IMG/VR virus record: IMGVR_UViG_3300037418_003165
Span: 1-64,000 of that record
Source: a virus
Taxonomy: Duplodnaviria; Heunggongvirae; Uroviricota; Caudoviricetes
Direction: 5' to 3' (one strand)
Length of the DNA stretch: 64,000 nucleotides
Below are positions 1,501 to 31,022 of the stretch, one piece after another. Below the pieces are notes generated by a model, which ran no database searches, had not been told where the DNA came from, and worked only from the letters and a program-made list of their open reading frames with translations. Each line of letters starts with the position of its first letter. The first letter of the stretch is position 1. The translations under genes were made by a program, and so were the position numbers.

Positions 1501-2255
1501 TGATCGATGTCATACACCTGCGCGGCACCAAAGAGCCGATATCTGATCAGCACGGGATATCGCGGACGTTCCTGAATGCACTCGACCCCACACGGTTTCG
1601 GTCCCTGCTTGTCGATTGCCCGGGCGACTACGGAGACCCCATCCCGTTCGGGGTCTCCAACGACATCGGCCGCGCCCACGCCCTGGAAGTGATCGCCGGT
1701 AGCGGCAACCTTCTAGTGCTGTCCGGATACTCCGCTGGCGCGTATATCGCTGGAGACCTTGCCGCTGACATCGCCGCCAAGCGTGTGCCCGGCGTCGATC
1801 CGAATCGGCTGCTCGGTTGCGCCTTGATCGCGGACCCGAAGCGCCCCGAATTCGCGGGCGCGCCCGGGCTCGCCACACCGCCCGGGTACGGGATCGCCGG
1901 GCAGCGACCAGTGCCCGATGTCCGGACATGGTGGGGCACAGCGTCCCACGACCCGATCAGCGCGCTGCCCGCGGACAACATGCTGCGCTCACTGGCCGAC
2001 CTATCGGTCTACGCGTCGCTGGATCCGATGCGCTGGGCGATGTGGGCCCAATCGGTGGTCAGCGTGATCGCCGCGCGGAAGCTGCAGCCCTGGTGGGCGG
2101 TCTGGCGCAAGCCGCTGCCCCGTGTGATTGCCGCCGAGCAGGCCGCGCTCGGGTATCTGACCGGCCGCCATACCACCGACTACCTCACCGAAGGGATCTG
2201 CGTGGGCTTGGCGGCCGCGGTGAACAACGCGTTCCCGGCACAGGAGAGCGCATGA
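1500..2255 (+). CDS. Cutinase-family serine esterase (LysB-like).
   Basis: LRGTKEP...LSGYSAGA matches the cutinase ARGTxEP and GYSQG nucleophile-elbow motifs. ATG at 1500 shares a base with the upstream stop (TGATG). In frame with listed ORF 1410..2255. Confidence 0.65.
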   Translation: MIDVIHLRGTKEPISDQHGISRTFLNALDPTRFRSLLVDCPGDYGDPIPFGVSNDIGRAHALEVIAGSGNLLVLSGYSAGAYIAGDLAADIAAKRVPGVDPNRLLGCALIADPKRPEFAGAPGLATPPGYGIAGQRPVPDVRTWWGTASHDPISALPADNMLRSLADLSVYASLDPMRWAMWAQSVVSVIAARKLQPWWAVWRKPLPRVIAAEQAALGYLTGRHTTDYLTEGICVGLAAAVNNAFPAQESA

Positions 2256-3661
2256 CCACCGTCGACGACCGACAAACCCAGACCGGCGCGGTGTGCCGCT
2301 GCTGCATCGACATCGAAGTGGGGGTCTACCTCAATGACTATCGCGTCCTGGCCGCTCTGTGCGACGGCGGGATGGCCGAAGGAGAGCCAATGGCAAGAGA
2401 ATTCACCAAACTGTGGGGCTCCCTATTCACCGATCGCCGGTTCGTCGATCTCTGCGTATTCGACAAGATCGTGTTCGTCCAGCTCATGGGCCCGAGCGAA
2501 TGCAACCGCGCCGGTGTTGTCCGGCTGTCGCTGCGGCGCTGGCTGCGGTGGCTCGCGCCGGCATCGGAAGAGCAGTTGAAAGCCGCCCTGAATCGCCTGG
2601 AGCGCGCCGGTCTGGTGTTCATCGACCCGGACACCGAGGAAGTGTTCGTGTGCCCGTACATGGAGGAAGACGAGACCTACAAACAGCCGTGGCCGATGGT
2701 CAACGCCTTCCGCGAGATGACCCGGGTCCACAGTCCCAAGATCGCCGCGATGCTGCTCGAGGAACTCGATCGATTCGAGATCGCGCGGCCCTCGGGAACG
2801 AGCGCGACTGCAGTGAAGGTGCGCGCGGCCCTCGATGCCGCGGAACGGGATGCGCTGAAGCAGCTGAACAGCCTCGTCGACGGTGCCCCACTGAATTTCG
2901 AGCTGCCGTTCCCCGATGTTTCCATCGATGTGCACTTCGGCCCGGCGGTATCCGAATCGCCCGCTGCGCCGCTCACGCCGGCACCGACGACACGCCGGGG
3001 AGAACCCTTCTCCGAACCCTTCGGTGAACCCTTCAGCGAAGGGTTCGCGCCGCGACACGCCGCCGCGGCCGATACATCCACCCTACCTGCAGAAACCCCA
3101 GGTGAACCCTTCTCGGAAGGGTTCGAAGAAGGGTTCGAGGCACCGGGGCCGCGACACGCCGATGGAGAACCCTTCGGAGAACCCTCCGGTATAGGTGCAG
3201 GTGTTCTTGTTAACTCACCTGTTCTTTCAGGCGAGATTCAAGAATTTGGGGCTCACCTCAAGCAACCAACTCACTTGCGCGTGGCGGCATTCGACACGAG
3301 CCCCCCGATGGCCAGCTGCCCCGATCACCCGGACGGCACCAACAATCCCTGCCGCCGGTGCGAAGCCAACCGCAAGGCCCACACCCGCGAACAAGCCCGC
3401 GCCCACTCAGAACGAGTCCATCGCGACGCCGACGCCAAACGCCGCGCCTGGGAGGCCTGCCCCCTCGGCTGCCTCGAACGCCGCGGCTACACACCCGAGG
3501 GCAACCTGTGCACTCACGACCCGGAAGAGCTCACCCGCCCCATGCCCGGTCGTGACCAATACCGCGAGGTCCTGGCCGCCATCAACGACCGAGTGTCGAA
3601 CAAGCGCGCCGCCGAACCCAGCCGCGGCAACCGCGCCGACCGCCGGCGACGAAGGAAGTGA
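2252..3661 (+). CDS. Putative replication initiator-like protein with an internal iteron array and AT-rich region. Carries EPF/GEPF peptide repeats.
   Basis: 470-aa frame from ATG 2252 (ATGA overlap). The DNA encoding the EPF-repeat segment contains eight or more copies of GAACCCTTC/GAAGGGTTC, followed by an AT-rich patch. Confidence 0.5.
   Translation: MTTVDDRQTQTGAVCRCCIDIEVGVYLNDYRVLAALCDGGMAEGEPMAREFTKLWGSLFTDRRFVDLCVFDKIVFVQLMGPSECNRAGVVRLSLRRWLRWLAPASEEQLKAALNRLERAGLVFIDPDTEEVFVCPYMEEDETYKQPWPMVNAFREMTRVHSPKIAAMLLEELDRFEIARPSGTSATAVKVRAALDAAERDALKQLNSLVDGAPLNFELPFPDVSIDVHFGPAVSESPAAPLTPAPTTRRGEPFSEPFGEPFSEGFAPRHAAAADTSTLPAETPGEPFSEGFEEGFEAPGPRHADGEPFGEPSGIGAGVLVNSPVLSGEIQEFGAHLKQPTHLRVAAFDTSPPMASCPDHPDGTNNPCRRCEANRKAHTREQARAHSERVHRDADAKRRAWEACPLGCLERRGYTPEGNLCTHDPEELTRPMPGRDQYREVLAAINDRVSNKRAAEPSRGNRADRRRRRK
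2995..3190 (+). repeat. Iteron-like 9-mer array (GAACCCTTC and its complement GAAGGGTTC, at least 8 copies in both orientations).
   Basis: Read directly at 3001-3050, 3100-3140 and 3160-3185. Confidence 0.7.
3185..3275 (+). promoter_or_regulatory. AT-rich low-GC patch with inverted repeat CAGGTG...CACCTG next to the iterons. Candidate DNA-unwinding element / origin.
   Basis: ggtgcaggtgttcttgttaactcacctgttctttcaggcgagattcaagaatttgg contrasts with the 65% GC surroundings. Confidence 0.45.
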
Positions 3662-3909
3662 TCGCGATGCCTCACGACCGCACCGGCGAAGAGATCGAAC
3701 TCGACGACGAGCCGACGCCCGAGCCGCCCAGGCCCCGCTGCCGGCGCTGCGGCGGCAGCGGCTGGCTCGGCGTCGACGACGAAGAGCGACCGATCCCGTG
3801 CCCGGAATGCAAAGACCACCTGCTCGGCGGCACCGCCGTCGTCCACGACTTCTCCAACCGCCTGCCCTCCCAGCGGGCCCAGCTCGCGATCGAAAGAGAC
3901 AACCTGTGA
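3658..3909 (+). CDS. Small Cys-rich (CxxC...CxxC) protein.
   Basis: GTGA overlap start. CRRCGGSGW...CPEC zinc-ribbon pattern. Confidence 0.55.
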   Translation: MIAMPHDRTGEEIELDDEPTPEPPRPRCRRCGGSGWLGVDDEERPIPCPECKDHLLGGTAVVHDFSNRLPSQRAQLAIERDNL

Positions 3910-4313
3910 CAACACGCATTTCGCTGGAAATCGAATCTCCCTGCGGCAACATGAAAACCGACCTGACGACCGGCGAAGGCCGTGAGCACGACGGCGCCGA
4001 GGTCGAAGCAACCCGCATCATCGACACCCTCGGCTTCGCCGCGGTGATGGCGATCGGCGCCTACGGAATCGACCACCAGGACCTCATCGAGGCCATCCGC
4101 AGCGCAGCGGGCCCAACGATGACCGCCCGCCCCTCGACTCCACCCCGCCGCAACCCCGACGGCAGCACCACGATCACGGTGAAGACCTGCTGCCGCGCCT
4201 GCGGCCGGACCCTCGGCGACGCCACCCGCGAGGAACTCGACGACGCCATCGCTGGCCTCCCGTTGCCGGACCTCTCGGACGAATGCGGCTGCAAGGGAGC
4301 GCGACAGCCATGA
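3906..4313 (+). CDS. Hypothetical protein.
   Basis: GTG start overlapping the upstream stop. GC3-biased frame VTTRISLEIESPCGNMKT... within listed ORF 3195..4313. Confidence 0.5.
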   Translation: MTTRISLEIESPCGNMKTDLTTGEGREHDGAEVEATRIIDTLGFAAVMAIGAYGIDHQDLIEAIRSAAGPTMTARPSTPPRRNPDGSTTITVKTCCRACGRTLGDATREELDDAIAGLPLPDLSDECGCKGARQP

Positions 4314-4921
4314 CCCAGCCCCGCAGCAAAGACCTCCACGCTGCCCTCGCGCACGCATGTCAGCTCGCCAAACGCCATGGCGTCAGGACGATTACACCGA
4401 CGGAGTTCCTCATCAGGGGTACCGAATCCGGACGAACCCACGCGCTCTTCGTCGACGGCCACCACGTGATCAGCGTGATGATCAACCCGGCCGGCCTCGC
4501 GACCTTCGCGATGGCCGAAATGCAGTGGAAAGAGCACGACGCCTGGCGGATCGCCGCCGAGCCCCTCGCTGAACCCGCCGCCGCGGATCCCGCGCTCCGC
4601 GCACCCGCCCGCGGGCAGTGCCCCGACTGCCGAGGCGACTACCAGCTGCGCGGCGACGGCCGCCTCCGCCAACACCGCGGCCTCTACGCAGGCCAACCGC
4701 GCAGCGCGGGCCCCTACAAATGCGGCGGCGTTGGGAAACTGCCGGTCGACCATGCCACGGACGACCCCCGATGCGGCGAGTGCGGCGGCTCGGATCCCGG
4801 CGACAACGGGCTGTGCTCGGGATGCATGCAGGTCGTGTGCGTCGGCGCCGAGATACCCACCGACGGCGGCGAATTCGAATACGGCGACGAGCCGGACTAC
4901 GACAGGGGCACCGATGCCTGA
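4310..4921 (+). CDS. Hypothetical Cys-rich protein.
   Basis: ATGA overlap. MTQPRSKDL... Confidence 0.55.
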   Translation: MTQPRSKDLHAALAHACQLAKRHGVRTITPTEFLIRGTESGRTHALFVDGHHVISVMINPAGLATFAMAEMQWKEHDAWRIAAEPLAEPAAADPALRAPARGQCPDCRGDYQLRGDGRLRQHRGLYAGQPRSAGPYKCGGVGKLPVDHATDDPRCGECGGSDPGDNGLCSGCMQVVCVGAEIPTDGGEFEYGDEPDYDRGTDA

Positions 4922-5267
4922 CACGAAAACCACTTGGACTCAGCAGGAACTCGTCGACGAGGCACGCCGCCGATTCGGCGACGACCACTGGACCTGGGCT
5001 TTCCGCTGCCCGCGCTGCGGCGACATCGCAACCGCCCGCGACTTCAAAGACGCCGGGGCCGCCCCTGAACGCATCGGCCAGGAATGCATCGGTCGGCACC
5101 TCGGCGCACTGAAGGGACCGCCCACGACCGACGGCGGCCAGTCGATCGCCACCCGCGGCTGCGACTGGGCCGCCTACGGCCTCATCTCGGGTCCGTGGTC
5201 GATCGTCATGCCCGACGGCCATAAGGCCCCGTCGTTTCCGCTCGCGGAGGCGGCGCCCAATGCCTGA
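4914..5267 (+). CDS. Hypothetical protein.
   Basis: ATG 4914 overlaps the upstream end. MPDTKTTWTQQELVDE... Confidence 0.5.
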   Translation: MPDTKTTWTQQELVDEARRRFGDDHWTWAFRCPRCGDIATARDFKDAGAAPERIGQECIGRHLGALKGPPTTDGGQSIATRGCDWAAYGLISGPWSIVMPDGHKAPSFPLAEAAPNA

Positions 5268-6006
5268 CCAGAACCGGCCGACCGACGAGCAAGTGCGCGA
5301 GTGGGGCGAGCGCCTGGCCGTTATGCCGCCACGCACCCCTACCGCATGGTCGCTCGCACGAACGCTGTACGCCGAGCTCGTCGATGAGCGGGAACGCGTC
5401 GCCAACCTGGCGCATGGTCGCGATATCGAGCAGACCGCACTGCGCGGCGCCATAGCCCGCATCGCCGAACTGGAAGCGGCGCAGTCCCGTTGCCAAACGA
5501 CGACCGCTATCGCCGTGTGGGATGGAGTCGCCGACGGCCGCAGCATCTGGTGCGAACTGCCGGACGGCCACGACGGAAAGCATCGCGCCACCGTCCCGCA
5601 GCCCGGCAACGTGGACGCCACCGTCGACTGGGGCAACCCGCCGACGGAGCGGATCGGCTACGCGGTCGGCTACTGCCTCGACAGCGAATTCGTGTCGCTG
5701 GGCAGCGACACCCTCTACACGGCCCCGGCCGAGGCTGCAGACGAACTGGCCGCCGCGCAGTCGGAATCGCCGGCCACCCCGTTCCGCGTGTACGAGCTCC
5801 GTGAGGTGCGTGGCGAGGGTGCGCCGAGCGCCGCCCCGGCCGGTTATGCCGTGGTGACCCGTAATCCGGAAGGCGGCCTGCATCGTTCGGCCACGGTCTG
5901 GGACGACCTGGATCGCGCAACCGCGGCAGGGGATTTCCAGGCTAGGCACGCTGAGGGCACTGGTTGCTCTGCCGCCGTGTACGCGCTGCGGGAGGTCCAG
6001 CCGTGA
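5260..6006 (+). CDS. Hypothetical protein.
   Basis: 248-aa listed ORF that overlaps the upstream stop. Confidence 0.55.
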   Translation: MPDQNRPTDEQVREWGERLAVMPPRTPTAWSLARTLYAELVDERERVANLAHGRDIEQTALRGAIARIAELEAAQSRCQTTTAIAVWDGVADGRSIWCELPDGHDGKHRATVPQPGNVDATVDWGNPPTERIGYAVGYCLDSEFVSLGSDTLYTAPAEAADELAAAQSESPATPFRVYELREVRGEGAPSAAPAGYAVVTRNPEGGLHRSATVWDDLDRATAAGDFQARHAEGTGCSAAVYALREVQP

Positions 6007-6221: not shown

Positions 6222-6427
6222 CCGAGCCTCGATGCGACTGGAGCGATCTGCCGGTCAGCATGTGCGCCCACTGCCGGCCTGCCGAAGATGACACCCCGAG
6301 CGAAGAGGTCCACTGGCTCACCGCCCGCTACGCCGGATGCTGCGCGGACTGCGGAGGGGCGATCGAACCAGGCGACCGGATCGCATTCACCGACGACGAT
6401 TATCTGTGCGGGGAGTGTGGCGAATGA
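6218..6427 (+). CDS. Small zinc-ribbon protein.
   Basis: ATGA overlap. CAHC...CADCGG...CGECGE. Confidence 0.5.
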   Translation: MTEPRCDWSDLPVSMCAHCRPAEDDTPSEEVHWLTARYAGCCADCGGAIEPGDRIAFTDDDYLCGECGE

Positions 6428-6960
6428 GCGAAACCGCCCACGGCCCTGTCGATGAGATCGGCGCGTTCGAGCGTCAGGAATGGTTCGGCGCGAAGGCCGA
6501 ATTGCGTTGGACGAAAACGCAACTCGGCAAACTGTCCCGAGAATGTCGAGTGCTCGCGACCTACACTGTGGTGCTGGCCGCCGTGTCCGGAGTGCTCGCG
6601 GCCACCGCGATCACCAACGGATCGACTCTGTGGTGGCTGCTCACCGTCGGCTCCGCAATCAGCTGCGCACTCGTCCTGACGTATTTCGGGTTCTCGGTGT
6701 TCGACCACGGCATCGCGCGCAAACGCGTCGAGCGGGCCGCGGCCGTGCTGGATCACCTGCAGCCGCCAGGGGAACGCACTCGACTGGCCGGATTCGTGAT
6801 CGCCCGCATCGAAGAACGCAACGACGACACCGAGGCCCCCCAACTCTACGGCTTCAGCGAAGACGTCCTCACCAGTTACGAAGCCGCCGACCAGCGCCTG
6901 CAGATGGCAAACGACTGGCGCACCGGCTGGCACATGTACGCACTCAGGGAGATTCGATGA
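6424..6960 (+). CDS. Membrane protein with two TM helices.
   Basis: ATGA overlap. Hydrophobic segments VLATYTVVLAAVSGVLAATAI and WWLLTVGSAISCALVLTYFGF. Confidence 0.55.
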   Translation: MSETAHGPVDEIGAFERQEWFGAKAELRWTKTQLGKLSRECRVLATYTVVLAAVSGVLAATAITNGSTLWWLLTVGSAISCALVLTYFGFSVFDHGIARKRVERAAAVLDHLQPPGERTRLAGFVIARIEERNDDTEAPQLYGFSEDVLTSYEAADQRLQMANDWRTGWHMYALREIR

Positions 6961-15607: not shown

Positions 15608-15771
15608 CCTTCGGGGGCGGAGCCTGGTGCGCTGGCGTGGGTTACTTCCACTGTTAATGGAGAGGTTGCAGGTTCGATTCCTGTCACACCCCCCGTAAGG
15701 ATCGGGTGTGTAGCTCAATTGGCAGAGCGCTATCACCTTCGCCGAATCTTTCTCAGGCCCCGCTCCCGAAA
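15608..15771 (+). ncRNA. Y-RNA-like (YrlA-type) ncRNA candidate 2, with a permuted tRNA-Asn-like domain.
   Basis: Hairpin ttcca-ctGTTaa-tggag. T-arm gcagg-ttcgatt-cctgt (15668-84). 3' acceptor cacaccc (15685-91) pairs perfectly with gggtgtg (15704-10) across a 12-nt loop. D-arm gctc-aattggc-agagc. A 17-bp closing stem forms between 15610-26 (ttcgggggcggagcctg) and 15753-69 (caggccccgctcccgaa). Confidence 0.6.
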
Positions 15772-15812
15772 CTCTGAATGCTTGTGCCCCCGCCATCCAC
15801 AGAAGGGCAGGC

Positions 15813-17375
15813 ATGAGCAAGTTCAACGGCAGCGCCGCGCGGGCAGTCGCCGCGGGCCCGATCCAAACCGGTTTCGCCCGCGACGCGAAATCCGAACTCT
15901 TCCTCCTCGCCATCACCAACATGGTCGGGGAGAAGACCTTCTACGAGACCGCGATCGAACGCGATTCCCGATTTGCCGGGCTCGTCCGCACCATCGCCCT
16001 CAACGACCTCGACTGGCTCACTCGCTTCGGGCGCTGGCTGCGCACCGAAGTGAACATGCGCAGCGTGTCTCTCGTGCTCGCCGCAGAAGCCGCCAAAGCC
16101 ACCAACGACGCTGGACAGCACGGTGGCCGCGAACTCGTCAACGCCGTGCTCCAGCGCGCCGACGAACCGGGGGAGATGGTCGCCTACTGGCTGTCGCACT
16201 ACGGGCGCCGACTCCCGAAACCCGTCAAGCGAGGCATAGCCGACGCCGCGGCCCGGCTCTACAACGAACGCTCAACCCTCAAGTGGGACAGCGCCGGCCA
16301 CGGCATCCGCTTCGCCGACGTCATCCAGCTCACCCACCCCGACCCCCAGGCCCTCTGGCAGTCGGAGCTGTTCAAATACCTCGTCGCCCGCCGCTGGGGC
16401 AACGACGTCGAGCCCTCGCCCCGCCTCCAGATGCTGCACGCCAACGCCCACATGCGCACCCACAGCCCCGAGCACATCAAGACGCTGGCGACGAGCGGCC
16501 ACCTGGCGGAACTGCTGCGTCTGGCCGGAATGACCTGGGAAGCGATCCCCGTCCTCGTGCAGGGACCGTGGACTGCCGAACTGTGGTCGGCGGCGATCCC
16601 GACCATGGGTTACATGGCGCTCACGCGCAACCTTCGCAATTTCGACCAGGCCCACGTCAGCGACGATATCGCCGAGCAGGTCGCTGCACGCCTCAGCGAC
16701 CCCCAGCAGGTCGCACGGTCGGGGATGCTGCCAATGCAGTTCCTGTCCGCCTACCGGGCCGCGCCCTCACTGCGCTGGGCGTACCCGCTGGAAAAGGCCC
16801 TCGATCTATCGCTGGCCAACATCCCGCAGCTCCGCGGCCGCACGCTGGTGCTGGTCGACACCTCCTCCTCGATGGATGCCGGCTTCTCCAAGGACGGCAC
16901 CCTCCGGCGCTGGGACGCGGCCGCACTCTTCGGAATCGGCCTCGCCGCCCGCTGCGAGTCAGCCGACCTCGTGTCGTTCTCCAGTACTGCCCAGTACTGG
17001 GGGCAGCCCCACAACGCCCACACCCGCGAATTCACCACCACCGCAGGCGAATCCCTACTCAAAGCCCTCGACCGGTGGAAGCAGGGCGGATGGTTCCTCG
17101 GTGGCGGCACCGCCACCGCGGCCGCGGTGCGGCGCCACTTCAACGCCCACGACCGCGTAGTGATCCTCACCGACGAGCAGGCCCAGCACGACGGCCAGGA
17201 AGTCGGCCAGGCGCTCCCGAAGCAGGTGCCGCTCTACACCTGGAACCTCGCCGGCTACAAGCGCGGCCACGCCGCCGGCGGCCCGAACCGGCACACCTTC
17301 GGAGGCCTCACCGACAAGGCCTTCACGATGATCCCGCTCCTCGAGCGCGGCCGCGACTGCGATTGGCCCTTCTAA
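15813..17375 (+). CDS. rsr: Ro60/Rsr ortholog (TROVE domain plus C-terminal vWA domain).
   Basis: 520 aa. RBS GAAGGGCAGG. MIDAS motif LVLVDTSSSM. The overall TROVE-vWA architecture is typical of Ro60. Confidence 0.75.
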   Translation: MSKFNGSAARAVAAGPIQTGFARDAKSELFLLAITNMVGEKTFYETAIERDSRFAGLVRTIALNDLDWLTRFGRWLRTEVNMRSVSLVLAAEAAKATNDAGQHGGRELVNAVLQRADEPGEMVAYWLSHYGRRLPKPVKRGIADAAARLYNERSTLKWDSAGHGIRFADVIQLTHPDPQALWQSELFKYLVARRWGNDVEPSPRLQMLHANAHMRTHSPEHIKTLATSGHLAELLRLAGMTWEAIPVLVQGPWTAELWSAAIPTMGYMALTRNLRNFDQAHVSDDIAEQVAARLSDPQQVARSGMLPMQFLSAYRAAPSLRWAYPLEKALDLSLANIPQLRGRTLVLVDTSSSMDAGFSKDGTLRRWDAAALFGIGLAARCESADLVSFSSTAQYWGQPHNAHTREFTTTAGESLLKALDRWKQGGWFLGGGTATAAAVRRHFNAHDRVVILTDEQAQHDGQEVGQALPKQVPLYTWNLAGYKRGHAAGGPNRHTFGGLTDKAFTMIPLLERGRDCDWPF

Positions 17376-18553
17376 TGCCGATGACGCAGATCAGCCCCAA
17401 ATTGCTGTCGTGGGCCGTTGAGATCGACGACAACACGATCGAACAGGCGCACCAGACCGCGAGCATGCCGTTCGTGGCCCCGCACGTCGCGCTGATGCCC
17501 GACGCGCACAGTGGGCTCGGCGCCGCGGTGGGAACCGTCATCCCCACCGACGGCGCTGTGATCCCAGCCGCGGTCGGCGTGGACATCGGCTGCGGTATGG
17601 GTGCGATCGAGACTCGCTTCACCGCAGCCGATATCGACGGCCGCGACCTGGGCCAGCTGCGCGCAGCCATCGAGGCCGCGATCCCGCTGAGCCCCGGCTT
17701 CTACAACACCGCCATCACCCGCGACCACACCGCCGAACGGATCGCCGAGCTCGAAGGACTCGCCGCGCGCAACAGCGTCGACCTCACGCATTCTCCGAAG
17801 TGGCGCGAGCAGCTCGGCTCGCTTGGCGGCGGTAACCACTTCATCGAGCTGTGCTTGGACGAACGCCAGCACGTGTGGCTGTTCCTTCACTCCGGAAGCC
17901 GGGGCGTCGGCAACAAGATCGCCCAACGTCACATCAAGATCGCCCAGCAGCTGTGCAAGCGGTGGTGGATCGACCTGCCCAGCCCAGACCTCGCTTACCT
18001 CGTCGAGGGCACACACGAGTTCGCCTTCTACATCAAGGAACTCGCGTGGGCGCAGAAATTCGCCGCGCTCAACCGCGCGGACATGCTCGACCGGTTCGCC
18101 GCCGAATTCGCGCACTGGATCGGCGCCGACGACCACGGCGAAGTCGACCGGATCATCTCCCACCACAACTACACCCGCCGCGAGAAGCACATGGGCCGAG
18201 ACGTCTGGTTGACCCGGAAGGGCGCCGTCGATGCACACGCCGGCGTGCGGTCGATGATTCCAGGCAGCATGGGCACCGCCTCCTACGTCGTGGAAGGCAA
18301 GGGCTGCGTCCCGGCGCTCTGCTCGGCACCGCACGGCGCCGGCCGACGCATGTCGCGCACGGAGGCGAAAAAGCGGTTCACCGCCGACGACCTCTCCGCC
18401 CGCATGCAGGGAATCGAGTACCGGCCGGGCGAGGAATGGGTGGACGAGATCCCGGACGCGTACAAGCCGATCGACGAAGTCATGGCCGCCGCAGAGCCAC
18501 TGGTCACGGTGCTGCACCAATTGCGGCAGGTCATGAACGTCAAGGGAACGTAG
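17375..18553 (+). CDS. rtcB: RtcB RNA 3'-phosphate/5'-OH ligase.
   Basis: ATG overlaps the rsr stop. His/Cys metal-site motifs PDAHSGLG, GCGMG, GNHFIEL, HSGSRG and HHNY are typical of RtcB. Confidence 0.8.
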   Translation: MPMTQISPKLLSWAVEIDDNTIEQAHQTASMPFVAPHVALMPDAHSGLGAAVGTVIPTDGAVIPAAVGVDIGCGMGAIETRFTAADIDGRDLGQLRAAIEAAIPLSPGFYNTAITRDHTAERIAELEGLAARNSVDLTHSPKWREQLGSLGGGNHFIELCLDERQHVWLFLHSGSRGVGNKIAQRHIKIAQQLCKRWWIDLPSPDLAYLVEGTHEFAFYIKELAWAQKFAALNRADMLDRFAAEFAHWIGADDHGEVDRIISHHNYTRREKHMGRDVWLTRKGAVDAHAGVRSMIPGSMGTASYVVEGKGCVPALCSAPHGAGRRMSRTEAKKRFTADDLSARMQGIEYRPGEEWVDEIPDAYKPIDEVMAAAEPLVTVLHQLRQVMNVKGT

Positions 18554-24647: not shown

Positions 24648-25138
24648 CGTCGATCGAGAAGTGGGCGCCCCTGTTCCTGTGGCGATCACGGGACCCTGAG
24701 GGCCGCCCGGTCAGCCAGTCGAGTGAGCGGCCACCGATGAGTGCCCTATGTGAAGGCGGCAGTCTCACAGTCGACTTCCCGAAGGGACATCGTATGTGCT
24801 GGCGGGTTATCAATGGGCGCCTGGTAGACGAGTCCGAACTGCTGCCGCCGATCACTCTGCAACGCAACCCGTTCCTCGAATCCGAGCAGCAAGACGCCTC
24901 CCGCTGGGCGATCGTTCACGACCGGTGGAAAGACCCACTCGACACTCTGGAACTTCTGGCGCCGGATGAGCCATTCGTCCAGGACATGCTGGCGACGCGC
25001 GAGAATATCCGCCGTACTTACGATGAGATCACAGCCTCCGTGCCCGACGGGCTGACGCCGCGCGCGCGGGACGAATACGTCGCAGCGCAGGTCATGCAGT
25101 CGATCGCGTCCGGGATCGCTGCTAAGAGGCGCCCGTGA
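24644..25138 (+). CDS. Hypothetical protein.
   Basis: ATGA overlap. Confidence 0.5.
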   Translation: MTSIEKWAPLFLWRSRDPEGRPVSQSSERPPMSALCEGGSLTVDFPKGHRMCWRVINGRLVDESELLPPITLQRNPFLESEQQDASRWAIVHDRWKDPLDTLELLAPDEPFVQDMLATRENIRRTYDEITASVPDGLTPRARDEYVAAQVMQSIASGIAAKRRP

Positions 25139-25632
25139 CCATCGTCGAGTTCATCGAGGCCCGGCTTGCCGAGGACGAGGAAACCGCGCAATCTGCGATC
25201 GACCCCGAACGTCCTGGTACGCATTGGTGTTGGGAAGACGGCGAGAGGGATCCGTTGCAACCTGGGGTTGAGGTGGAAGGGCTGGATACCCAGGCGATTT
25301 CGCTGCGAACGGTCGAGGAGTATCCGACACGTCATGTCGGCCCGCTGCCCGCGTTCATTCTCCGCCAGGTGGAGGCGCGCCAGCAGGGCGGCCTGTGGCA
25401 CATCGCCCGCCACGACCCGGCACGGGTGCTGCAGCAGTGCGAGTTCGGCCGCGACGTGCTCGACGCATATCGCACTGCGGTCAGAGCGCGCAACTCTCGC
25501 AACGAGCACGCCACCAACGCATTCACGGCCGGCCAAGACGCAGCGGCTGTGATGTGGCTCGGGTGGATGCTGCAGAAGTTGGCCGCAATATGGTCCGATC
25601 ACCCGGACTACCGGACGGAGTGGGCCGCGTGA
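25135..25632 (+). CDS. Hypothetical protein (tandem paralog A).
   Basis: GTGA overlap. DPARVLQQCEFGRDVLDAYR resembles the next gene. Confidence 0.5.
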   Translation: MTIVEFIEARLAEDEETAQSAIDPERPGTHWCWEDGERDPLQPGVEVEGLDTQAISLRTVEEYPTRHVGPLPAFILRQVEARQQGGLWHIARHDPARVLQQCEFGRDVLDAYRTAVRARNSRNEHATNAFTAGQDAAAVMWLGWMLQKLAAIWSDHPDYRTEWAA

Positions 25633-26018
25633 CCTCCGATGACATCCTGTCTCGTCTGTCTGCTGGCCTGGACCGGGACGAGCAACTCGCCCGAGCGATC
25701 GACGACAAGCAGTTCGACAGCGGGTGGAGCATCATCTCCTATCCAGGTGCCGCCGGGAAGACGATCAGCCCGCATATCGGTCACGTCCACGAGGTCGAGG
25801 CGGCAGAGCACATCGTGCGCCAAGACCCGGCCCGCACCCTGCGGCGGGTGGAGGCGATCCGGAAGGTGATCGAACGCTATGAGTTCGTCACCAGTCACGG
25901 CCCGGCGGTCGACAACACTCGGGCGATGGACATGACCACAGGCGCTACGGCCGCGCTGCGGGACGTGCTGGAGATGCTGGCCTCCATCTACTCCGATCCC
26001 GCCGGGGAGGGTGAGTGA
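25629..26018 (+). CDS. Hypothetical protein (tandem paralog B).
   Basis: GTGA overlap. DPARTLRRVEAIRKVIERYE...LASIYSD. Confidence 0.5.
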   Translation: MTSDDILSRLSAGLDRDEQLARAIDDKQFDSGWSIISYPGAAGKTISPHIGHVHEVEAAEHIVRQDPARTLRRVEAIRKVIERYEFVTSHGPAVDNTRAMDMTTGATAALRDVLEMLASIYSDPAGEGE

Positions 26019-26230
26019 GCATCGACGACATCGGCGTGACCGCCCAACAGCTCCGTGAGATGGCCGACGCGGTCGCCGCCCGCTACCCCGCCGCGGTACT
26101 GGTGAAGAACCAGGTCGGCAACCTCTCAGTGGTGAATGCGGGCGAGTATCTGGGGTTTCTGGACCTGCGGTTCGGTGGCGTGACGTTCTTCGAGGACAAC
26201 GATTCCGCCGAGACGGGAGGGGAATCGTGA
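26015..26230 (+). CDS. Small hypothetical protein.
   Basis: GTGA overlap. Confidence 0.4.
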   Translation: MSIDDIGVTAQQLREMADAVAARYPAAVLVKNQVGNLSVVNAGEYLGFLDLRFGGVTFFEDNDSAETGGES

Positions 26231-26451
26231 GCGATCGTAAGCCCTACGAGACGTCCATCTCGCTGGAGGGCGCCCTCATCGGTTGGACAGACCGCGACGG
26301 CCAACTCCATGTGGAGCGCTGCCGGGGTGAGTGGCCCTGCCGGATCAGGTTGGTATCTGAACCCGATCTACCGCGCGCCTTGCGAAAACTCTCCGCCATT
26401 GAGGACATGGTGCGGGAGATCACCGGCGGGACAGGAGAACCGACGCCGTGA
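26227..26451 (+). CDS. Small hypothetical protein.
   Basis: GTGA overlap. Confidence 0.4.
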   Translation: MSDRKPYETSISLEGALIGWTDRDGQLHVERCRGEWPCRIRLVSEPDLPRALRKLSAIEDMVREITGGTGEPTP

Positions 26452-26738
26452 GCGCCTGGGAGCACTGGTCCAAGGCCGAGGCTCACATGGCCGAGTATCA
26501 ATTCCGCGACGCCGCCGAGCTCGCGGACGAACTGCTTGAGGCGGGCTACATCCTCGCCGCCGACCGCGACACGGTCGCGACGGAGATCGGCGTCCACGAC
26601 GCCGTCTACGTATTTGAGGACGACGCCCCGCATTGCAAGTGCGGGAAGTGGCTGGAGGACAACGAGTACGAGTGGCCGGACCATGTGGGTGATGTGCTCG
26701 ACAAGTGGATCACCGAAGCGGGGAGGGGGGACCGATGA
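26448..26738 (+). CDS. Small hypothetical protein.
   Basis: GTGA overlap. Confidence 0.4.
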   Translation: MSAWEHWSKAEAHMAEYQFRDAAELADELLEAGYILAADRDTVATEIGVHDAVYVFEDDAPHCKCGKWLEDNEYEWPDHVGDVLDKWITEAGRGDR

Positions 26739-26992
26739 GCGACTGGCGCGGAGGCTTCTACGCTGCCGTTGCCGCGTGGCTCCGCGACCGTGAACCCGCC
26801 CTCGATATCGCGCGCGTCGTGGGCGTGGACGAGAGTATCGACATCAATCCCGGCTACTCGGTGGCCGACGACACGGTCGAGGTGAACCTTGAGGTCCGGT
26901 ACATGACGTCGGAGGGTGTGGAGCAGACGCATTCGCGGCTGGGCGGCCTCGGCGAAGTCATCCGGGAGATCACCGCGGGAGCGGAGTCGTGA
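26735..26992 (+). CDS. Small hypothetical protein.
   Basis: ATGA overlap. Confidence 0.4.
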   Translation: MSDWRGGFYAAVAAWLRDREPALDIARVVGVDESIDINPGYSVADDTVEVNLEVRYMTSEGVEQTHSRLGGLGEVIREITAGAES

Positions 26993-27201
26993 GCAAGCTG
27001 TTGTGTCAGAACTGCAAGGGCGAGATGCGTTGGAACCCAAACGCCCCGGCGTACCGGTGTAGCGATCCTGGCTGTCGGTGTGAGACGGCGCAGGGATGCT
27101 ATGAGCATGTCGGCGAGGATTGCACGCTGTTCCTGTGGCTGCTCCAGGTACCTGACGACGCCGAGGCGGGAGCGCCCAAGGTGGCGGCGGGAGAGTCGTG
27201 A
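26989..27201 (+). CDS. Small zinc-ribbon protein.
   Basis: GTGA overlap. CQNCKG...CSDPGCRC. Confidence 0.4.
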   Translation: MSKLLCQNCKGEMRWNPNAPAYRCSDPGCRCETAQGCYEHVGEDCTLFLWLLQVPDDAEAGAPKVAAGES

Positions 27202-27239
27202 GCGACGAAATCGCGGACAGGCGCCGATAGGATCGCGGC

Positions 27240-27419
27240 ATGGCGTTACAGGTTGGATCGCGGGTCAAGCTCATCGAGGGCGGGGTGTCGGTGTTCCGCA
27301 TCGTGGAGATGGAGGCCGACGGTGATCCCACTCATGTGGTCGTGGAACCAGTTGAGGATGCGCCGGGCGGGTACCCATTCCCGACACCGATCCAGCACCT
27401 GGTGCTCGTCGACGAGTAA
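27240..27419 (+). CDS. Small hypothetical protein (59 aa), absent from the ORF track because it is below 60 aa.
   Basis: ATG 27240 to TAA 27417-27419. MALQVGSRVKLIEGGVSVFRIVEMEADGDPTHVVVEPVEDAPGGYPFPTPIQHLVLVDE. GC3-biased. Confidence 0.4.
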   Translation: MALQVGSRVKLIEGGVSVFRIVEMEADGDPTHVVVEPVEDAPGGYPFPTPIQHLVLVDE

Positions 27420-27481
27420 CTTGGTATCGGTTCGGATGGATGTTCCGGCCTCAGATCGCCATGACGACAGAGGAGCATCCA

Positions 27482-27727
27482 ATGCAGAACATCACGATCG
27501 GCCGATACCGGGCCAACGAGGCCACCGCCGTGCGCATCCGATGCGATGCCGGCGGGAATGAACTTGGTCGCGAAGATTTCCAGGCCCACGCTGGGTGGAT
27601 CGAAGGCGTACGCGACGACGGCAGTCGCTGGATCATGTACACGGACGCCGCCGGCTCCCCGCAGATCTTTTGGCCGCACCGAGGCGACGACGGCGCCGTG
27701 CGCGGCGTCCCGGTCGAACTGGATTGA
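27482..27727 (+). CDS. Hypothetical protein.
   Basis: GAGGAG sits 9 nt upstream of ATG 27482. In frame with listed ORF 27440..27727. Confidence 0.45.
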   Translation: MQNITIGRYRANEATAVRIRCDAGGNELGREDFQAHAGWIEGVRDDGSRWIMYTDAAGSPQIFWPHRGDDGAVRGVPVELD

Positions 27728-27795
27728 GCACAGAAACGAAATGGCCGCCCCGGCAACCGGGGCGGCCATTCTGCGTACTGGGGGACCGTCTCGCC

Positions 27796-28035
27796 CTACT
27801 GGGGGGTGGTCGGCGCGGTCGTGCCGCCGGACGCGCTGCCGCTCGTCAACGCTCGGACCACGGCGTTACCCAGGTTCGCGCTACCGCTCGTGGCGGGGTC
27901 GGGGGTTGTCGTGCCGTCGACGGCGACAGCGGCTGGCGCGGGCTCGAGAGGAATGCCGGCCTGGGCGACAGTGGCGCTGGCCCCGATCACGGCAACAGCG
28001 GAGAAAGCGATAGCGGCAAAACGGGTGATGCTCAC
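27796..28035 (-). CDS. Small secreted Ala/Thr-rich protein with a signal peptide.
   Basis: GTG start with a GGAGA RBS. N-terminus SITRFAAIAFSAVAVIGASATVAQA. Confidence 0.5.
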   Translation of the reverse strand: MSITRFAAIAFSAVAVIGASATVAQAGIPLEPAPAAVAVDGTTTPDPATSGSANLGNAVVRALTSGSASGGTTAPTTPQ

Positions 28036-28152
28036 AAATTCTCCTAGCTCGATTTGTTGTGATGACGTCCTTGCATCGTTCACAGCATGAAAAACGTTAC
28101 TACCAGCGGATTTGCGGGATTCGCTCTGAAAGACTCGCTGTCGCAGGTGGTC

Positions 28153-28434
28153 TCACGCCTCTGCTGGCGGCGTGCCGCCGCGTTGGAACACATCTCGCAG
28201 ACCGGCGTCCAGATCCAGACGACCGCGGAGGTCCTCGATGAAGTCCGCGTGTTTCGCGGCCAGCCACGCATCGATCTCCGCCGTTTCCTCGGTCAGCTCG
28301 GCGCTTGCCGCGGGATCAGCTTGCACACGTTCGAACATCTGCTGGAATTCCGTCCACAGGCGTTCCGTCGTCTTCGGGGCGACAGGTCGGAGCAGCATGC
28401 GCGCGATCTCGTCCTTGTCCTCCTGAAACGTCAT
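28153..28434 (-). CDS. Hypothetical protein.
   Basis: 93 aa. Its ATG sits 6 nt after the stop of the upstream minus-strand gene. Confidence 0.5.
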   Translation of the reverse strand: MTFQEDKDEIARMLLRPVAPKTTERLWTEFQQMFERVQADPAASAELTEETAEIDAWLAAKHADFIEDLRGRLDLDAGLRDVFQRGGTPPAEA

Positions 28435-28439
28435 GCTGA

Positions 28440-28694
28440 TCAGGCCTTGTCCTCGGGAAAGAGATGGGAGTAGTGCGTACGGATGGTGCTTCCGAGGCCG
28501 CCGCCCGGCATGTCGGTGACTTCCAGAACGATGAGGGGCTCGGCGCGGTCACGGAAGTAGAAGACGTCCCTCACGATGAAGTCGCCCTCCGGCAGGACGA
28601 TCGTCTCCGCGCGGCGCGGGAGTGGCCACTCGCCGGGCCAGTCGATGTCGAACGATTGTCCGTAATGGTTTATGTCGTGGATGCGGAGCTTCAC
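28440..28694 (-). CDS. Hypothetical protein.
   Basis: GTG start with a GAAGGG RBS. VKLRIHDINHYGQSFDIDW... Confidence 0.45.
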   Translation of the reverse strand: MKLRIHDINHYGQSFDIDWPGEWPLPRRAETIVLPEGDFIVRDVFYFRDRAEPLIVLEVTDMPGGGLGSTIRTHYSHLFPEDKA

Positions 28695-28906
28695 GATTCG
28701 ATAGCCCTTCCGGGACGGTTGGCAGTCAGTGACGATTTCTCGCGGTGGAGCAGGTCTCGAATGTAGGGGGGCAGCCCGTGGGGGAGACGCCATTGTCTCC
28801 CCGCTCGGATGCTTGCGGGTTGGATCCGCGGACTGCTCGGGTGGATATCGGTGACCGGTCGTGTCCCGGCCCGGAGTCGAACCGGGCCGCGCACCATGCG
28901 GGACGA

Positions 28907-29209
28907 TCAGGCTTCGCGCGCCTCTTCGGCGTCGTCGAGCGATGCGCCGAGCGCGTTGATCGCGGCGCGGAAGTGGGGGTGCCGCGAGGAGTGCTTGTCG
29001 GGGCGTTCGAGGAAGTAGACGATCTCGCCGATGCTCTGCGAGCGGAGCCGGCCGAGGTATTCACCGTCGCGGTCGCGGGTGATGCGCTGCCACCCGTCCT
29101 CGTCGTAGCGGTCGAGCAGGATCGTTTCGGCGATGTAGGGCCCGCGGTGGCGCAGCATGGCCGCGCGGACCGGGTAGAGGTCGGTCGTACCGGCTTCGAT
29201 ATCAGACAT
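28907..29209 (-). CDS. Hypothetical protein.
   Basis: CAGGAGAA RBS 5 nt upstream of the ATG. Confidence 0.55.
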   Translation of the reverse strand: MSDIEAGTTDLYPVRAAMLRHRGPYIAETILLDRYDEDGWQRITRDRDGEYLGRLRSQSIGEIVYFLERPDKHSSRHPHFRAAINALGASLDDAEEAREA

Positions 29210-29235
29210 CGGGTTCTCCTGAGAGGGAATGGGTT

Positions 29236-29481
29236 TCAGACTGCGACGGGGGCGGTGACGGTGACGTCCTGCCAGTTGCCGTGGCGGGTCGAGGCCCGGA
29301 TGATCTCGCCGTCGGCGTTCAGGCGGAGCAACAGCACCACTTCCTGCCCGCGGTCGTTGCGCGTCCGGGCGAGCGACGCGAACTCGTACTCGGGGCCTTC
29401 GGTGATCGTGTAGCGGCGGCCGCCGTAGTGGATGACCTGGCCGACGTAGTGGTCCGCGGGCTTGAGATCCGGCTTCGTCAT
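29236..29481 (-). CDS. Hypothetical protein. First gene of the minus-strand operon.
   Basis: GAAGGAGG RBS, then ATG (MTKPDLK...). Confidence 0.55.
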   Translation of the reverse strand: MTKPDLKPADHYVGQVIHYGGRRYTITEGPEYEFASLARTRNDRGQEVVLLLRLNADGEIIRASTRHGNWQDVTVTAPVAV

Positions 29482-29498
29482 GTGCGCCTCCTTCATCG

Positions 29499-29580: not shown

Positions 29581-29591
29581 AAGGAACACTC

Positions 29592-30528: not shown

Positions 30529-30529
30529 A

Positions 30530-30618: not shown

Positions 30619-30633
30619 GAAAGGAAGCTCACG

Positions 30634-31014: not shown

Positions 31015-31022
31015 CAAACACC

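Follow-up and report, generated by a model that had tools for sequence, protein, structure and literature searches.

The window, i.e. the whole 64,000-nucleotide (64-kb) stretch of phage DNA analysed here, carries close to its first position an initiator-like gene with a repeat array inside its coding sequence. It is an early-operon gene that comes after a repressor/Cro-like switch, ~43 kb from the probable terminase region. Its parts, and the DNA elements embedded in it, are the following.

2390..3661, plus strand: initiator-like gene, matching phrog_3171; called from ATG 2252 by the sequence-only reading of this DNA and by JGI
2390..2899, plus strand: winged-helix N-terminal domain (AF2 model), presumed to bind the iterons
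3002..3046, unstranded: iteron block 1, with exact GAACCCTTC at 3002, 3014 and 3026 (forward) and exact GAAGGGTTC at 3038 (inverted), at 12-bp spacing
3049..3062, unstranded: direct repeat GCCGCGACACGCCG, copy 1, exact over 14 nt
3083..3097, unstranded: central box CTACCTGCAGAAACC between iteron blocks; family consensus CCTG-S-R-GAAAC
3104..3136, unstranded: iteron block 2, with exact GAACCCTTC at 3104 (forward) and exact GAAGGGTTC at 3116 and 3128 (inverted)
3148..3161, unstranded: direct repeat GCCGCGACACGCCG, copy 2, 99 bp from copy 1
3167..3187, unstranded: iteron block 3, with exact GAACCCTTC at 3167 and GAACCCTCC (1 mismatch) at 3179
3188..3211, unstranded: 6-bp periodic tract GGT ATA GGT GCA GGT GTT CTT GTT
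3189..3278, unstranded: low-GC patch (GC 0.467), candidate DNA-unwinding element
3198..3221, unstranded: inverted repeat CAGGTG-N12-CACCTG, its right arm including the family TCACCT box (3215-3220)
3300..3661, plus strand: Cys/His-rich C-terminal domain (CPDHPDG..PCRRC ... CPLGC ... C.H), presumed recruitment module

Translation probably starts at ATG 2390 and not at the earlier call, ATG 2252. A Shine-Dalgarno motif, GAAGGAG, precedes ATG 2390 at 2378-2384, almost all of the 150 listed representatives of the family have their N-terminal domain beginning at residues 1-7, and residues 1-46 (counted from ATG 2252) have pLDDT values below 45 in the AF2 model.

The protein matches PHROG 3171, 'replication initiation protein', with an E value of 1.9e-47 (protein residues 47-442 against positions 1-328 of the 331 in the profile). 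The layout of this family is present in the AF2 model and in alignments: a winged-helix N-domain, modelled with confidence, a repeat-bearing linker and a C-terminal domain, for which a role in recruitment is only presumed. Both the repeats and the low-GC patch encode the linker, which is predicted to be disordered (pLDDT <40, aa 221-354). Homologs found by tblastn in 105-154 phage records (Gordonia, Mycobacterium, Rhodococcus, Arthrobacter) are annotated as replication initiation protein or RepA-like replication initiator. The 'initiator' label of the family goes back to annotation by inference, and the literature searched contained no experimental work on any of its members. Searches of Pfam gave no match at E<=0.1 for the protein, nor at E<=1 for 19 family N-domains, and a sequence search of the PDB with the family profile gave none either; AP-2 adaptin and DUF5926, which came up for the N-domain in the Pfam and PDB profile searches, were discarded as chance-level matches. 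A word-indexed protein search returned five matches for the full protein and none, itself included, for the N-domain alone; family representatives were gathered by an exhaustive phmmer search. The family comprises a minimum of 1,099 clusters at 50% identity (>=1,099). A search of plasmids produced just two weak matches; with so few plasmid members, the family offers no mini-replicon precedent.

The iteron array occupies 186 bp (3002-3187) and is built from GAACCCTTC and its reverse complement GAAGGGTTC, with eight exact units and one that deviates at a single position, arranged in three blocks that each keep a strict 12-bp start-to-start spacing. The sequence-only reading had counted at least eight copies in about 190 bp and an EPF-type peptide repeat in the 2252-3661 protein, and both observations hold: in the frame of that ORF every unit translates as EPF or EGF (...GEPFSEPFGEPFSEGF...GEPFSEGFEEGF...GEPFGEPS). 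The unit, GAA-CCC-TTC, combines symmetric flanks (GAA/TTC) with an asymmetric core (CCC/GGG). Both copies of the direct repeat GCCGCGACACGCCG come after an inverted iteron, a placement that suggests a local duplication by which an iteron block was added; the linker of the window protein is ~110 aa longer than those of its relatives.

Simple repeats are generally abundant in disordered linkers, and this is all that speaks for the array being a functionless low-complexity stretch, a product of chance or composition in a GC-rich genome. The eight exact 9-mers within 186 bp compare with one in the remainder of the 64 kb (at 56807), and none of 100 shuffles equalled the observed count of matches with at most one mismatch. 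Over 13.6 kb that include the array region, the sequence is the same in an independent public assembly (Logan SRR35144446, locus L048), so the array is not an assembly artefact. Together with the conservation over hundreds of relatives, the codon use and the DNA-only scan described below, these observations refute the compositional explanation, which we credit with practically no probability.

The same repeats might instead serve the protein, as an (E-P/G-F-x)n linker or an array of short motifs selected as peptide, the regularity of the DNA being a by-product of duplication or concerted evolution. The EPF/EGF peptide is indeed widespread in the family, the 14-nt repeat 99 bp apart is a sign of recent local duplication in the window, and the Mycobacterium abscessus group retains two degenerate QPF/EPF units with CCG or CCA cores, which hints at memory on the peptide level. 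Codon choice speaks against this explanation. In the window, the units use GAA in 9/9, CCC in 6/6 and GGG in 3/3 cases, against backgrounds of 0.41, 0.26 and 0.17, and block 1 employs GAA, CCC and GGG without exception. Across seven lineages with at least 60% protein divergence, and with the same genes outside the units as background, Glu, Pro and Gly are each tied to practically a single codon: GAA accounts for 55/55 in units versus 66/175 outside (38%, p = 2e-19), CCC for 29/31 versus 58/165 (35%, p = 5e-10) and GGG for 31/34 versus 40/133 (30%, p = 5e-11).

The peptides themselves vary as reverse complementation of a DNA word predicts. EPF and EGF are in-frame reverse complements of one another, and at position x of the linker motif E-x-[FLIM] the 148 family representatives have P 141 times and G 115 times, the next residue being found 36 times; outside the linker, neither P nor G is among the eight commonest residues at this position. 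The word is also read in other frames, as N-P-S for AACCCTTC in L040 and in two frames inside one array in L035, and the family shows the paired peptide forms EPF/EGF, NPS/KGS and GPS/GGS. Other lineages carry different flanks around a common ACCC core (GGACCCWCC, TTTACCCCA, GAACCCATG, GATACCCC). Three independent groups of lineages show suppressed synonymous variation within the repeat zone (OR 4.8, p = 0.0012; OR 2.5, p = 0.029; OR 2.5, p = 0.036), whereas amino-acid variability is not reduced. In addition, slippage is unable to create inverted units, and arrays are also found in apparently non-coding DNA. Selection for the peptide is thus hardly probable; judged from these sequence patterns, the repeats are kept as DNA signals, independently of the peptide that they encode. 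A comparison with relatives, proposed earlier as a check on whether the DNA is kept beyond the protein, was accordingly positive on codon use, P/G alternation, synonymous sites and the DNA-only scan. A search of the phage collection found no close DNA relatives of the window. At deep divergence, the aligned nucleotide identity of the post-iteron core (0.44-0.71) was not above that of the DNA coding for the N-domain (0.53-0.68), and the idea that the origin core aligns better than the N-domain at depth was dropped as unsupported. The constraint appears in architecture, codon choice and within-lineage synonymous sites only; it is the grammar that is kept, and not the sequence position by position.

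Directly 3' of the last iteron, the composition of the DNA changes. An AT-rich segment of about 90 bp had been described after the repeats, and it is found at 3189-3278 in a window of 66% GC. The 80-bp stretch from 3190 has a GC content of 0.45, compared with a window mean of 0.663 (sd 0.057), and ranks as the sixth-lowest in the 64 kb. The inverted repeat reported in this segment could likewise be located, with a 12-nt spacer, and 0.02 occurrences of a CAGGTG-N12-CACCTG-type pattern are expected per window. Its folding is modestly stable (z = -2.1); we rejected a hairpin and take the repeat as a possible dyad site. A search of the array region for an internal promoter or terminator found none.

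At the level of sequence, the same ordered architecture recurs across the large initiator-annotated family. The shared order is an iteron block, a CCTGSRGAAAC box, a second iteron block, the 6-bp tract, TCACCT, a lower-GC stretch, GTTGGGG and a GC-rich clamp. The central box between the two iteron blocks reads CGACCTGGGGAAACA in L002, CCACCTGGGGAAATG in L003, CGACCTGCGGAAACG in L001 and TCACCTGGGGAAACA in L012. Right after the last iteron, the tract takes the form (GGTNNN)n or (GTTGRG)n in L001-L004, L012 and L036, and (CTACNN)n or (ACTCCT)n in L035, L040, L043, L045 and L047; in 50 of the 148 family representatives, period-2 peptide repeats are the strongest periodicity. The TCACCT box follows the tract in L001, L002, L003, L012 (in a different frame) and L014. 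Of the regions compared, the 6-bp tract and post-iteron region of the window are the most divergent. In most lineages the gene reaches its lowest GC immediately 3' of the iterons: the lowest-GC 40-bp stretch lies at +24 from the last iteron in the window and at +2 to +8 in the M. abscessus prophage group, and has a similar position in L035, L042, L043, L036 and L047. L046 and a few other members have no obvious internal array, and the repeat of L033 is unrelated.

The coupling between repeat and protein was also visible from the DNA side. When 2.9 million viral contigs (IMG/VR) were scanned for GAACCCTTCNNNGAACCCTTC at the DNA level alone, 71 loci emerged, in 39 of which the pattern lies in the same ORF as a match to the N-domain HMM, at -4 to +351 nt from its end; at two more, it comes just after a truncated N-domain ORF. 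The repeat word is thus physically coupled to the N-domain across viral contigs.

The C-terminal domains that follow this N-domain and linker differ among relatives, and the Zn-type C-domain is also found behind other N-termini (tblastn matches H117-H121). Conversely, a 'MARY.KVD..' N-domain (L098, L060, L063) that differs from the family N-domain is followed by the same repeat grammar. Such exchanges are what one would expect if the repeat zone were mainly a junction for recombination and module shuffling, at which short conserved words promote domain swapping among phages. A junction of this kind leaves unexplained the strict 12-bp spacing, the use of both orientations, the ordered downstream elements and the low-GC patch, and as the main explanation we regard it as very unlikely. 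It is compatible with an origin, since RepA_N initiators are reported to be modular at their origin-containing linker: in the chimeric RepA_N initiator of pPR9, the N-terminal domain was swapped together with the origin (PMC5703833).

Free-standing arrays bear on a further alternative. One phage contig combines the L046 homolog, which lacks the linker, with an array elsewhere (L117) in an apparently non-coding gap, and L102 shows the same arrangement. Both arrays lie ~2 kb upstream of terminase genes, a position that would also allow the arrays of those phages a role other than that of an origin. The array of the window could accordingly be a true cluster of binding sites, for this or another protein, that acts in autoregulation, in copy control by handcuffing, in a partition or centromere-like function or in packaging. 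In the window, however, the gene and the probable terminase region are far apart, and the array is placed within coding sequence, distant from the promoter of the gene and without promoter-like sites. Moreover, the array always has a low-GC, 6-bp periodic stretch behind it, in an order that does not vary; this is typical of origins and would be superfluous for an operator. The nearest precedents in structure and architecture, pSK41 Rep and lambda O, are origins. We therefore consider a non-origin cluster unlikely.

We consider it likely, on the strength of these sequence features, that the array serves a temperate actinobacteriophage as its replication origin and is embedded in the gene for the phage's own initiator. 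The winged-helix N-domain of the 2390-3661 product would bind the nine 9-bp GAA-CCC-TTC units, which sit in the DNA encoding the disordered linker between the two domains. Oligomeric binding would distort the DNA and help to open the region at 3188-3278, comprising the 6-bp tract, the TCACCT box and the 47% GC patch. The Cys-rich C-terminal domain might then bring in the host helicase or primase, upon which theta-type replication would begin. We infer each of these steps, i.e. binding of the units by the gene's own product, melting in the low-GC patch, recruitment of host proteins and the start of replication at this site, from the arrangement described above.

Among known systems, staphylococcal RepA_N plasmids, with pSK41 Rep (structure 4pta) as prototype, appear to offer the closest structural parallel. 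In pSK41, the Rep boxes occupy the centre of rep, where the gene codes for a linker that is dispensable, and the winged-helix N-terminal domain of Rep binds these boxes while its C-terminal domain binds DnaG (PMC5703833). The window gene resembles this design in having its putative origin repeats in the central, linker-encoding DNA, where pLDDT stays below 40 between the domains. It differs in several respects: the protein has no sequence match to Pfam RepA_N (PF06970); RepA_N proteins are initiators of Firmicutes theta plasmids, whereas the window family belongs to phages of high-GC Actinobacteria; RepA_N has four Rep boxes, and the window family nine or more 9-bp units at 12-bp spacing in both orientations; the window family adds a conserved 6-bp periodic tract and TCACCT box; and the Cys-rich C-terminal domain of the window protein is unrelated to that of RepA_N.

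The sequence-only reading had proposed a lambda O/ori-like arrangement. In lambda, four to six iterons and an AT-rich tract make up the origin, which lies midway through gene O, and extra iterons lengthen the protein (PMC7466680). The window shares with it iterons (3002-3187) followed by an AT-rich tract (3189-3278) in the middle of an initiator gene, as well as the early-operon position of that gene after a repressor/Cro-like switch. The lambda iterons are about 19 bp long, in contrast to 9-bp units with 12-bp spacing in both orientations here, the window protein has no match to Phage_rep_O (PF04492), and no P-like helicase loader was recognised downstream of the gene. The proposal is thus supported as an architectural analogy, in that an initiator-family gene, linker iterons and a low-GC patch come together; membership in the lambda O/Phage_rep_O family was rejected, given the missing Pfam match and the different iteron format.

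Other initiators are more distant. Phage replisome organizers and DnaD/DnaB-like winged-helix initiators of the SPP1 G38P type show a resemblance at the level of the fold only, with no Pfam sequence match, another host range and another repeat grammar. Rep_3 (PF01051; pPS10 RepA, F and R6K type), which has two winged-helix domains and ~20-bp direct iterons outside the gene, did not fit and was set aside. The mycobacteriophage RepA of Miko, Rachaly and Jeeves is also an actinobacteriophage initiator; repA plus 171 bp upstream suffices for plasmid replication, and its authors suspected the origin to lie within or beside repA and found no repeated motifs (PMC7157519). It differs in acting, with parABS, in the maintenance of extrachromosomal prophages. 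As the three phages were absent among the matches listed in two tblastn searches (65 and 94 records being outside those listed), we treat the Miko-type RepA as a separate family.

Around the window gene, a PHROG scan of the neighbourhood and of the larger ORFs tested recognised no helicase, primase, polymerase or P-like loader. The downstream ORFs at 3658-3909, 4283-4921 and 5260-6006 had no informative match in PHROG or Pfam, and the small ORF downstream of the gene showed no homology to the ORF after CaptainKirk2 gp71. A skew analysis, suggested earlier as a test of the origin, showed no inflection of the GC skew at 3 kb; as evidence against an origin this is weak, and we judged it uninformative, since the skew appears to track gene orientation.

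An origin inside an initiator gene is a known principle and not new here; the literature searched contained no earlier description of an intragenic origin-like arrangement in this family of phages of high-GC bacteria. To our knowledge, actinobacteriophage replication origins are essentially unmapped. If our reading is correct, a simple sequence rule would locate origins in hundreds of Gordonia, Rhodococcus, Arthrobacter and Mycobacterium phages and prophages, those of M. abscessus included, and compact rep-plus-ori cassettes would become available for new shuttle vectors in these genera. The odd Pro/Gly-alternating repeat peptides would be explained as by-products of a DNA site, a clean natural case of DNA-site selection dictating protein sequence. 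Besides lambdoid phages and Firmicute plasmids, a third lineage would then use this design; it has no detectable sequence similarity to either system, which would imply convergence or very old common ancestry.

More tentatively, with a probability that we place somewhat below even, this large actinobacteriophage initiator family may share a hitherto undescribed origin grammar in its own coding sequence, this grammar also occurring in a free-standing non-coding form and with a second N-domain type that the family profile does not detectably match in sequence. With the same reserve, its elements could be defined as ACCC-core units in either orientation at 12-bp spacing, a 6-bp periodic tract, and a low-GC stretch with a TCACCT box, and it could perhaps be read from the protein alone through the paired peptides EPF/EGF, NPS/KGS and GPS/GGS. 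As for the 6-bp tract, it might, speculatively, be recognised in single-stranded form and on one particular strand, a role like that of DnaA-trios or of the TnnT repeats of DnaD.

The window has a GC content of 66% and is phage-like, with structural genes, an ORF of tape-measure size, an RtcB-like ligase and two tRNAs; among 50,697 phage records, none was a close relative at the DNA level. Within its initiator-like ORF (called 2252-3661, + strand), the 9-bp unit GAACCCTTC or its reverse complement GAAGGGTTC is present at 3002-3187 in eight exact copies and one copy with a single mismatch, with a start-to-start spacing of exactly 12 bp inside each block:

3002/3014/3026/3038, orientations +++-: iteron block 1
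3104/3116/3128, orientations +--: iteron block 2
3167/3179, orientations ++: iteron block 3

In the 64 kb, only one exact copy lies outside the array, at 56807. Chance is excluded as an explanation of the array. The units read EPF or EGF in the ORF frame. The last unit is followed directly by GGT ATA GGT GCA GGT GTT CTT GTT and then by AACTCACCTG, both inside a 90-bp low-GC patch (3189-3278, GC 46.7%). The 80-bp stretch at 3190 (GC 0.45) is the sixth lowest in the window (mean 0.663, sd 0.057), and an inverted repeat, CAGGTG-N12-CACCTG, is located at 3198-3221. The sequence-only reading had described at least eight repeat copies within about 190 bp, an encoded EPF-type peptide, and an adjoining AT-rich segment of about 90 bp with a CAGGTG/CACCTG inverted repeat. 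All of these are borne out, and a second independent public assembly, base-for-base identical to the window over 13.6 kb, confirms the repeats and the patch in full.

A 14-nt exact direct repeat, GCCGCGACACGCCG, is found at 3049-3062 and 3148-3161, 99 bp apart and each time after an inverted iteron. This suggests that the extra iteron block of the window arose by local duplication, in agreement with a linker (the stretch between the N- and C-terminal domains) about 110 aa longer than that of relatives; the duplication looks to have added one iteron block and about 30 aa of linker. GCCGCGACACGCCG could itself be a candidate binding site.

The ORF matches the PHROG 3171 family 'replication initiation protein' (E 1.9e-47). 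Homologs with 26-35% identity occur in 105 phage records (Gordonia, Mycobacterium, Thermobifida), labelled by their depositors as 'replication initiation protein', 'RepA-like replication initiator' or 'HTH DNA-binding protein'. With the predicted N-terminal winged-helix domain (N-domain) as query, an exhaustive phmmer search gave hits with E<=1e-3 to 1,099 cluster representatives. Of the 150 representatives listed among these, nearly all have the N-domain beginning at residues 1-7, with MAREY... as its start at residue 1 in nearly all listed family members. The called start, ATG 2252, overlaps the upstream stop as ATGA, and residues 1-46 counted from it are modeled with very low confidence. 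The position of the N-domain in the listed relatives, together with a GAAGGAG box at 2378-2384, 5 nt upstream of ATG 2390, indicates that the true start is likely ATG 2390 and not the annotated ATG 2252. AlphaFold predicts a winged helix followed by a long helix for residues 50-215 (pLDDT 75-94), disorder for residues 221-354 (pLDDT <40), which correspond exactly to the repeats and the low-GC patch, and a helical Cys/His-rich module at the C-terminus.

In the second assembly, the genes upstream comprise a divergent repressor/Cro-like HTH pair, a RecE-like exonuclease, an HNH endonuclease and a hydrolase-like gene, and the context is that of an early operon of a temperate phage. The hydrolase-like gene (1410-2255; called as 1500-2255 in the second assembly) lies immediately upstream of the initiator-like gene and matches PHROG 102 'endolysin' (E 7e-23), with a weak PE-PPE hit; its position in the early operon, far from the structural and lysis region, is odd for a lysis-type enzyme. 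Directly 3' of the initiator-like gene, a small ORF (3658-3909, 83 aa) whose start overlaps the initiator stop carries a CxxCxGxG zinc-finger motif and has a weak match of Anti-TRAP/DnaJ type that falls short of the Pfam cutoff (E 0.0027). It is not homologous to the gene that occupies this position in Gordonia phage CaptainKirk2.

Five independent lines of sequence evidence (codons, orientation, frame, synonymous sites and coupling/separability) agree in pointing to selection on the repeat DNA rather than on the peptide, and all five contradict the proposal that the repeats serve purely the peptide. The nine units of the window use GAA for Glu (9/9), CCC for Pro (6/6) and GGG for Gly (3/3), against genome backgrounds of 0.41, 0.26 and 0.17. 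When one representative from each of seven lineages was taken and the units were compared with the rest of the same genes, the counts were 55/55 versus 66/175 for GAA (p = 2e-19), 29/31 versus 58/165 for CCC (p = 5e-10) and 31/34 versus 40/133 for GGG (p = 5e-11). GAA-CCC-TTC and GAA-GGG-TTC are in-frame reverse complements of each other, and the Pro/Gly alternation, a non-conservative exchange for a protein, is predicted by inversion of a DNA site. Across 148 family representatives, the middle residue of E-x-[FLIM] in the linker is P 141 times and G 115 times, the next residue reaching 36, whereas elsewhere in the same proteins both fall outside the eight commonest residues. The reading frame also varies: in the relative L040, AACCCTTC shifted by one base encodes N-P-S and its inverted form K-G-S; in L035, the unit TTTACCCCA is read in two different frames within one array; and a TCACCT box is translated as I-S-P by one lineage but as L-T-L by another. 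Synonymous variability was compared within three groups of closely related genes at those codon columns whose amino acid does not vary; it was lower in the repeat zone than outside it in Gordonia phages (OR 4.8, p = 0.0012), M. abscessus prophages (OR 2.5, p = 0.029) and the group of locus L003 (OR 2.5, p = 0.036), with no reduction of amino-acid variability in the repeat zone of these groups. The repeats are very probably functional DNA sites of some kind.

In the M. abscessus prophage group (L012 and relatives), degenerate units CAGCCGTTC and GAACCATTC (peptide QPF, EPF) were observed at 3510-3535, upstream of the GGACCCWCC array. They have lost the CCC core and retained the peptide; they may be left over from an older type of iteron, or may point to some constraint on the peptide.

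Relatives with only 22-42% N-domain identity carry, at the corresponding position of the gene, a 12-bp-spaced array with units of both orientations. Nearly all iteron words share an ACCC/GGGT core:

Iteron words by lineage
GAACCCTTC/GAAGGGTTC: window, L002-L010, L028, L034
GAAGGGATC: Gordonia phages
GGACCC(A/T)CC: M. abscessus prophages
GAACCCATG: L036
GATACCCC: L029, L032
TTTACCCCA: L035, L045
GACCC: L043, L047

The order of elements is conserved as well: iteron block 1, a CCTG-S-R-GAAAC box (3083-3097 in the window), a second block, a 6-bp periodic tract, the TCACCT box, a lower-GC spacer, GTTGGGG and a GC-rich CGCGTGCGCGC clamp. The tract comprises three to five units; one clade has (GGTNNN)n or (GTTGRG)n, another (CTACNN)n or (ACTCCT)n. 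The 40 bp of lowest GC in the gene lie 3' of the last iteron, no more than a few tens of bases away, in the window, in the M. abscessus group and in five further loci (L035, L036, L042, L043, L047). Across the 148 representatives, the strongest linker periodicity is a period-4 or period-8 peptide repeat in 87 and period-2 in a further 50. The suggestion that the DNA might be kept beyond the protein holds for codon choice, orientation, frame and synonymous sites, but not for aligned nucleotide identity at deep divergence, which is no higher in the post-iteron core (0.44-0.71) than in N-domain coding DNA (0.53-0.68); the post-iteron version of the window, which has an insertion, is the most divergent of those compared. 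It is a grammar that is conserved, not an aligned sequence.

The coupling of array and N-domain is family-wide. A DNA-only scan of 2.9 million viral contigs with the pattern GAACCCTTCNNNGAACCCTTC gave 71 loci; in 39 of these the pattern shares an ORF with an N-domain HMM hit and is placed -4 to +351 nt after that hit. Two further loci have it just past a truncated N-domain ORF, about 15 are unrelated matches in low-GC contigs (several being giant-virus assemblies), and several others end at the edge of the available sequence. The array can also stand apart: one contig combines a homolog without linker array (L046) with a separate array in an apparently non-coding gap (L117, 6443-6640), and the locus L102 likewise has a free-standing array (minus strand, about 6380-6590). 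Both contain the whole origin-like module, with GAACCCTTC iterons in either orientation, a (GTGGTA)n tract, TTCTCTTACGTC and the GC clamp, and lie some 2 kb upstream of the terminase small subunit, after a 156-186 aa gene that belongs to no known family. Such arrays near terminase genes leave some room for the main rival explanation, a non-origin cluster of binding sites for autoregulation, handcuffing, partition or packaging. We consider this unlikely given the invariable low-GC and periodic module downstream of the array, the distance of the array from the promoter of the gene, and the precedents of lambda O and pSK41 Rep.

A second type of initiator-like protein, starting with MARY.KVD.., was observed in three loci (L098:9236-10999; L060:5374-6255, minus strand; L063:5675-6598). 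The N-domain HMM did not match these proteins, which show the same grammar in mid-gene, with EGF/KGS units 12 bp apart and, after them, a 6-bp periodic (QE)n tract. This suggests a distant relative, or an origin design that was arrived at convergently.

An origin inside the initiator gene, in a linker-coding segment, is a classical design. The lambda O/ori-lambda system offers an analogy (PMC7466680), and in pSK41 the Rep boxes lie centrally in rep, in DNA encoding a dispensable linker, and are bound by the winged-helix N-terminal domain, the C-terminal domain binding DnaG (PMC5703833). By sequence, the window protein does not belong to lambda O (PF04492), RepA_N (PF06970) or Rep_3, and it resembles RepA_N/DnaD-type initiators at the fold level only. 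The lambda O/ori arrangement proposed earlier therefore stands as an architectural analogy but not as PF04492 membership, pSK41-type RepA_N being the closer parallel. The repeat grammar of the window family departs from the lambda and pSK41 origins as generally known: its units are short 9-mers, quasi-palindromic except for the asymmetric CCC/GGG core, which occur in both orientations at 12-bp spacing and are accompanied by a 6-bp tract and boxes that are conserved.

The array is probably the phage replication origin, bound by the product of the gene in which it lies. The sequence comparisons establish that the elements exist, that they are constrained as nucleotides and that they are coupled throughout the family; by analogy with lambda O/ori-lambda and especially pSK41 Rep, we infer binding, unwinding, recruitment and initiation. 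The N-domain winged helix would bind the units in oligomeric form, and their mixed orientations and 12-bp spacing would set successive proteins around the helix, so that the DNA would be bent or wrapped and the adjoining 6-bp tract and low-GC patch destabilized. The C-terminal domain, which is exchangeable among relatives, would bring in a host helicase or primase. A recombination junction is compatible with such an origin and is not an alternative to it. In lambda, transcription through the origin helps initiation, and it may do so here because the origin would lie inside the early transcript.

Full-text searches of open-access papers turned up neither repeats nor an origin described for this initiator family; the one experimental paper on actinophage RepA reports no repeats, the protein apparently belonging to another family (PMC7157519). 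The finding represents no new principle, but the family-wide origin signature is clean, apparently undescribed and of practical value, and the array is a clear case of DNA-site selection shaping protein sequence.

Other features of the window were also observed:

15625-15694: tRNA-Asn
15813-17375: 520-aa protein, PHROG 850 'RNA-binding protein' family match
about 17420-18546: RtcB-like RNA ligase, 72-74% nt identity to mycobacteriophage RtcB genes
44352-44424: tRNA-Gln

The first three are clustered at 15625-18546 and may form a tRNA repair or anti-defense module. The only other CAGGTG...CACCTG inverted repeat of the window (17223-17242, CAGGTGCCGCTCTACACCTG) is located at the end of the PHROG 850-family gene, a short way upstream of the RtcB-like gene. 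GC skew is positive only at about 25000-31500; this region has small ORFs on both strands and several of the lowest-GC 80-bp stretches of the window (28034, 30489, 30599, 31568), and looks like a regulatory or divergently transcribed module.
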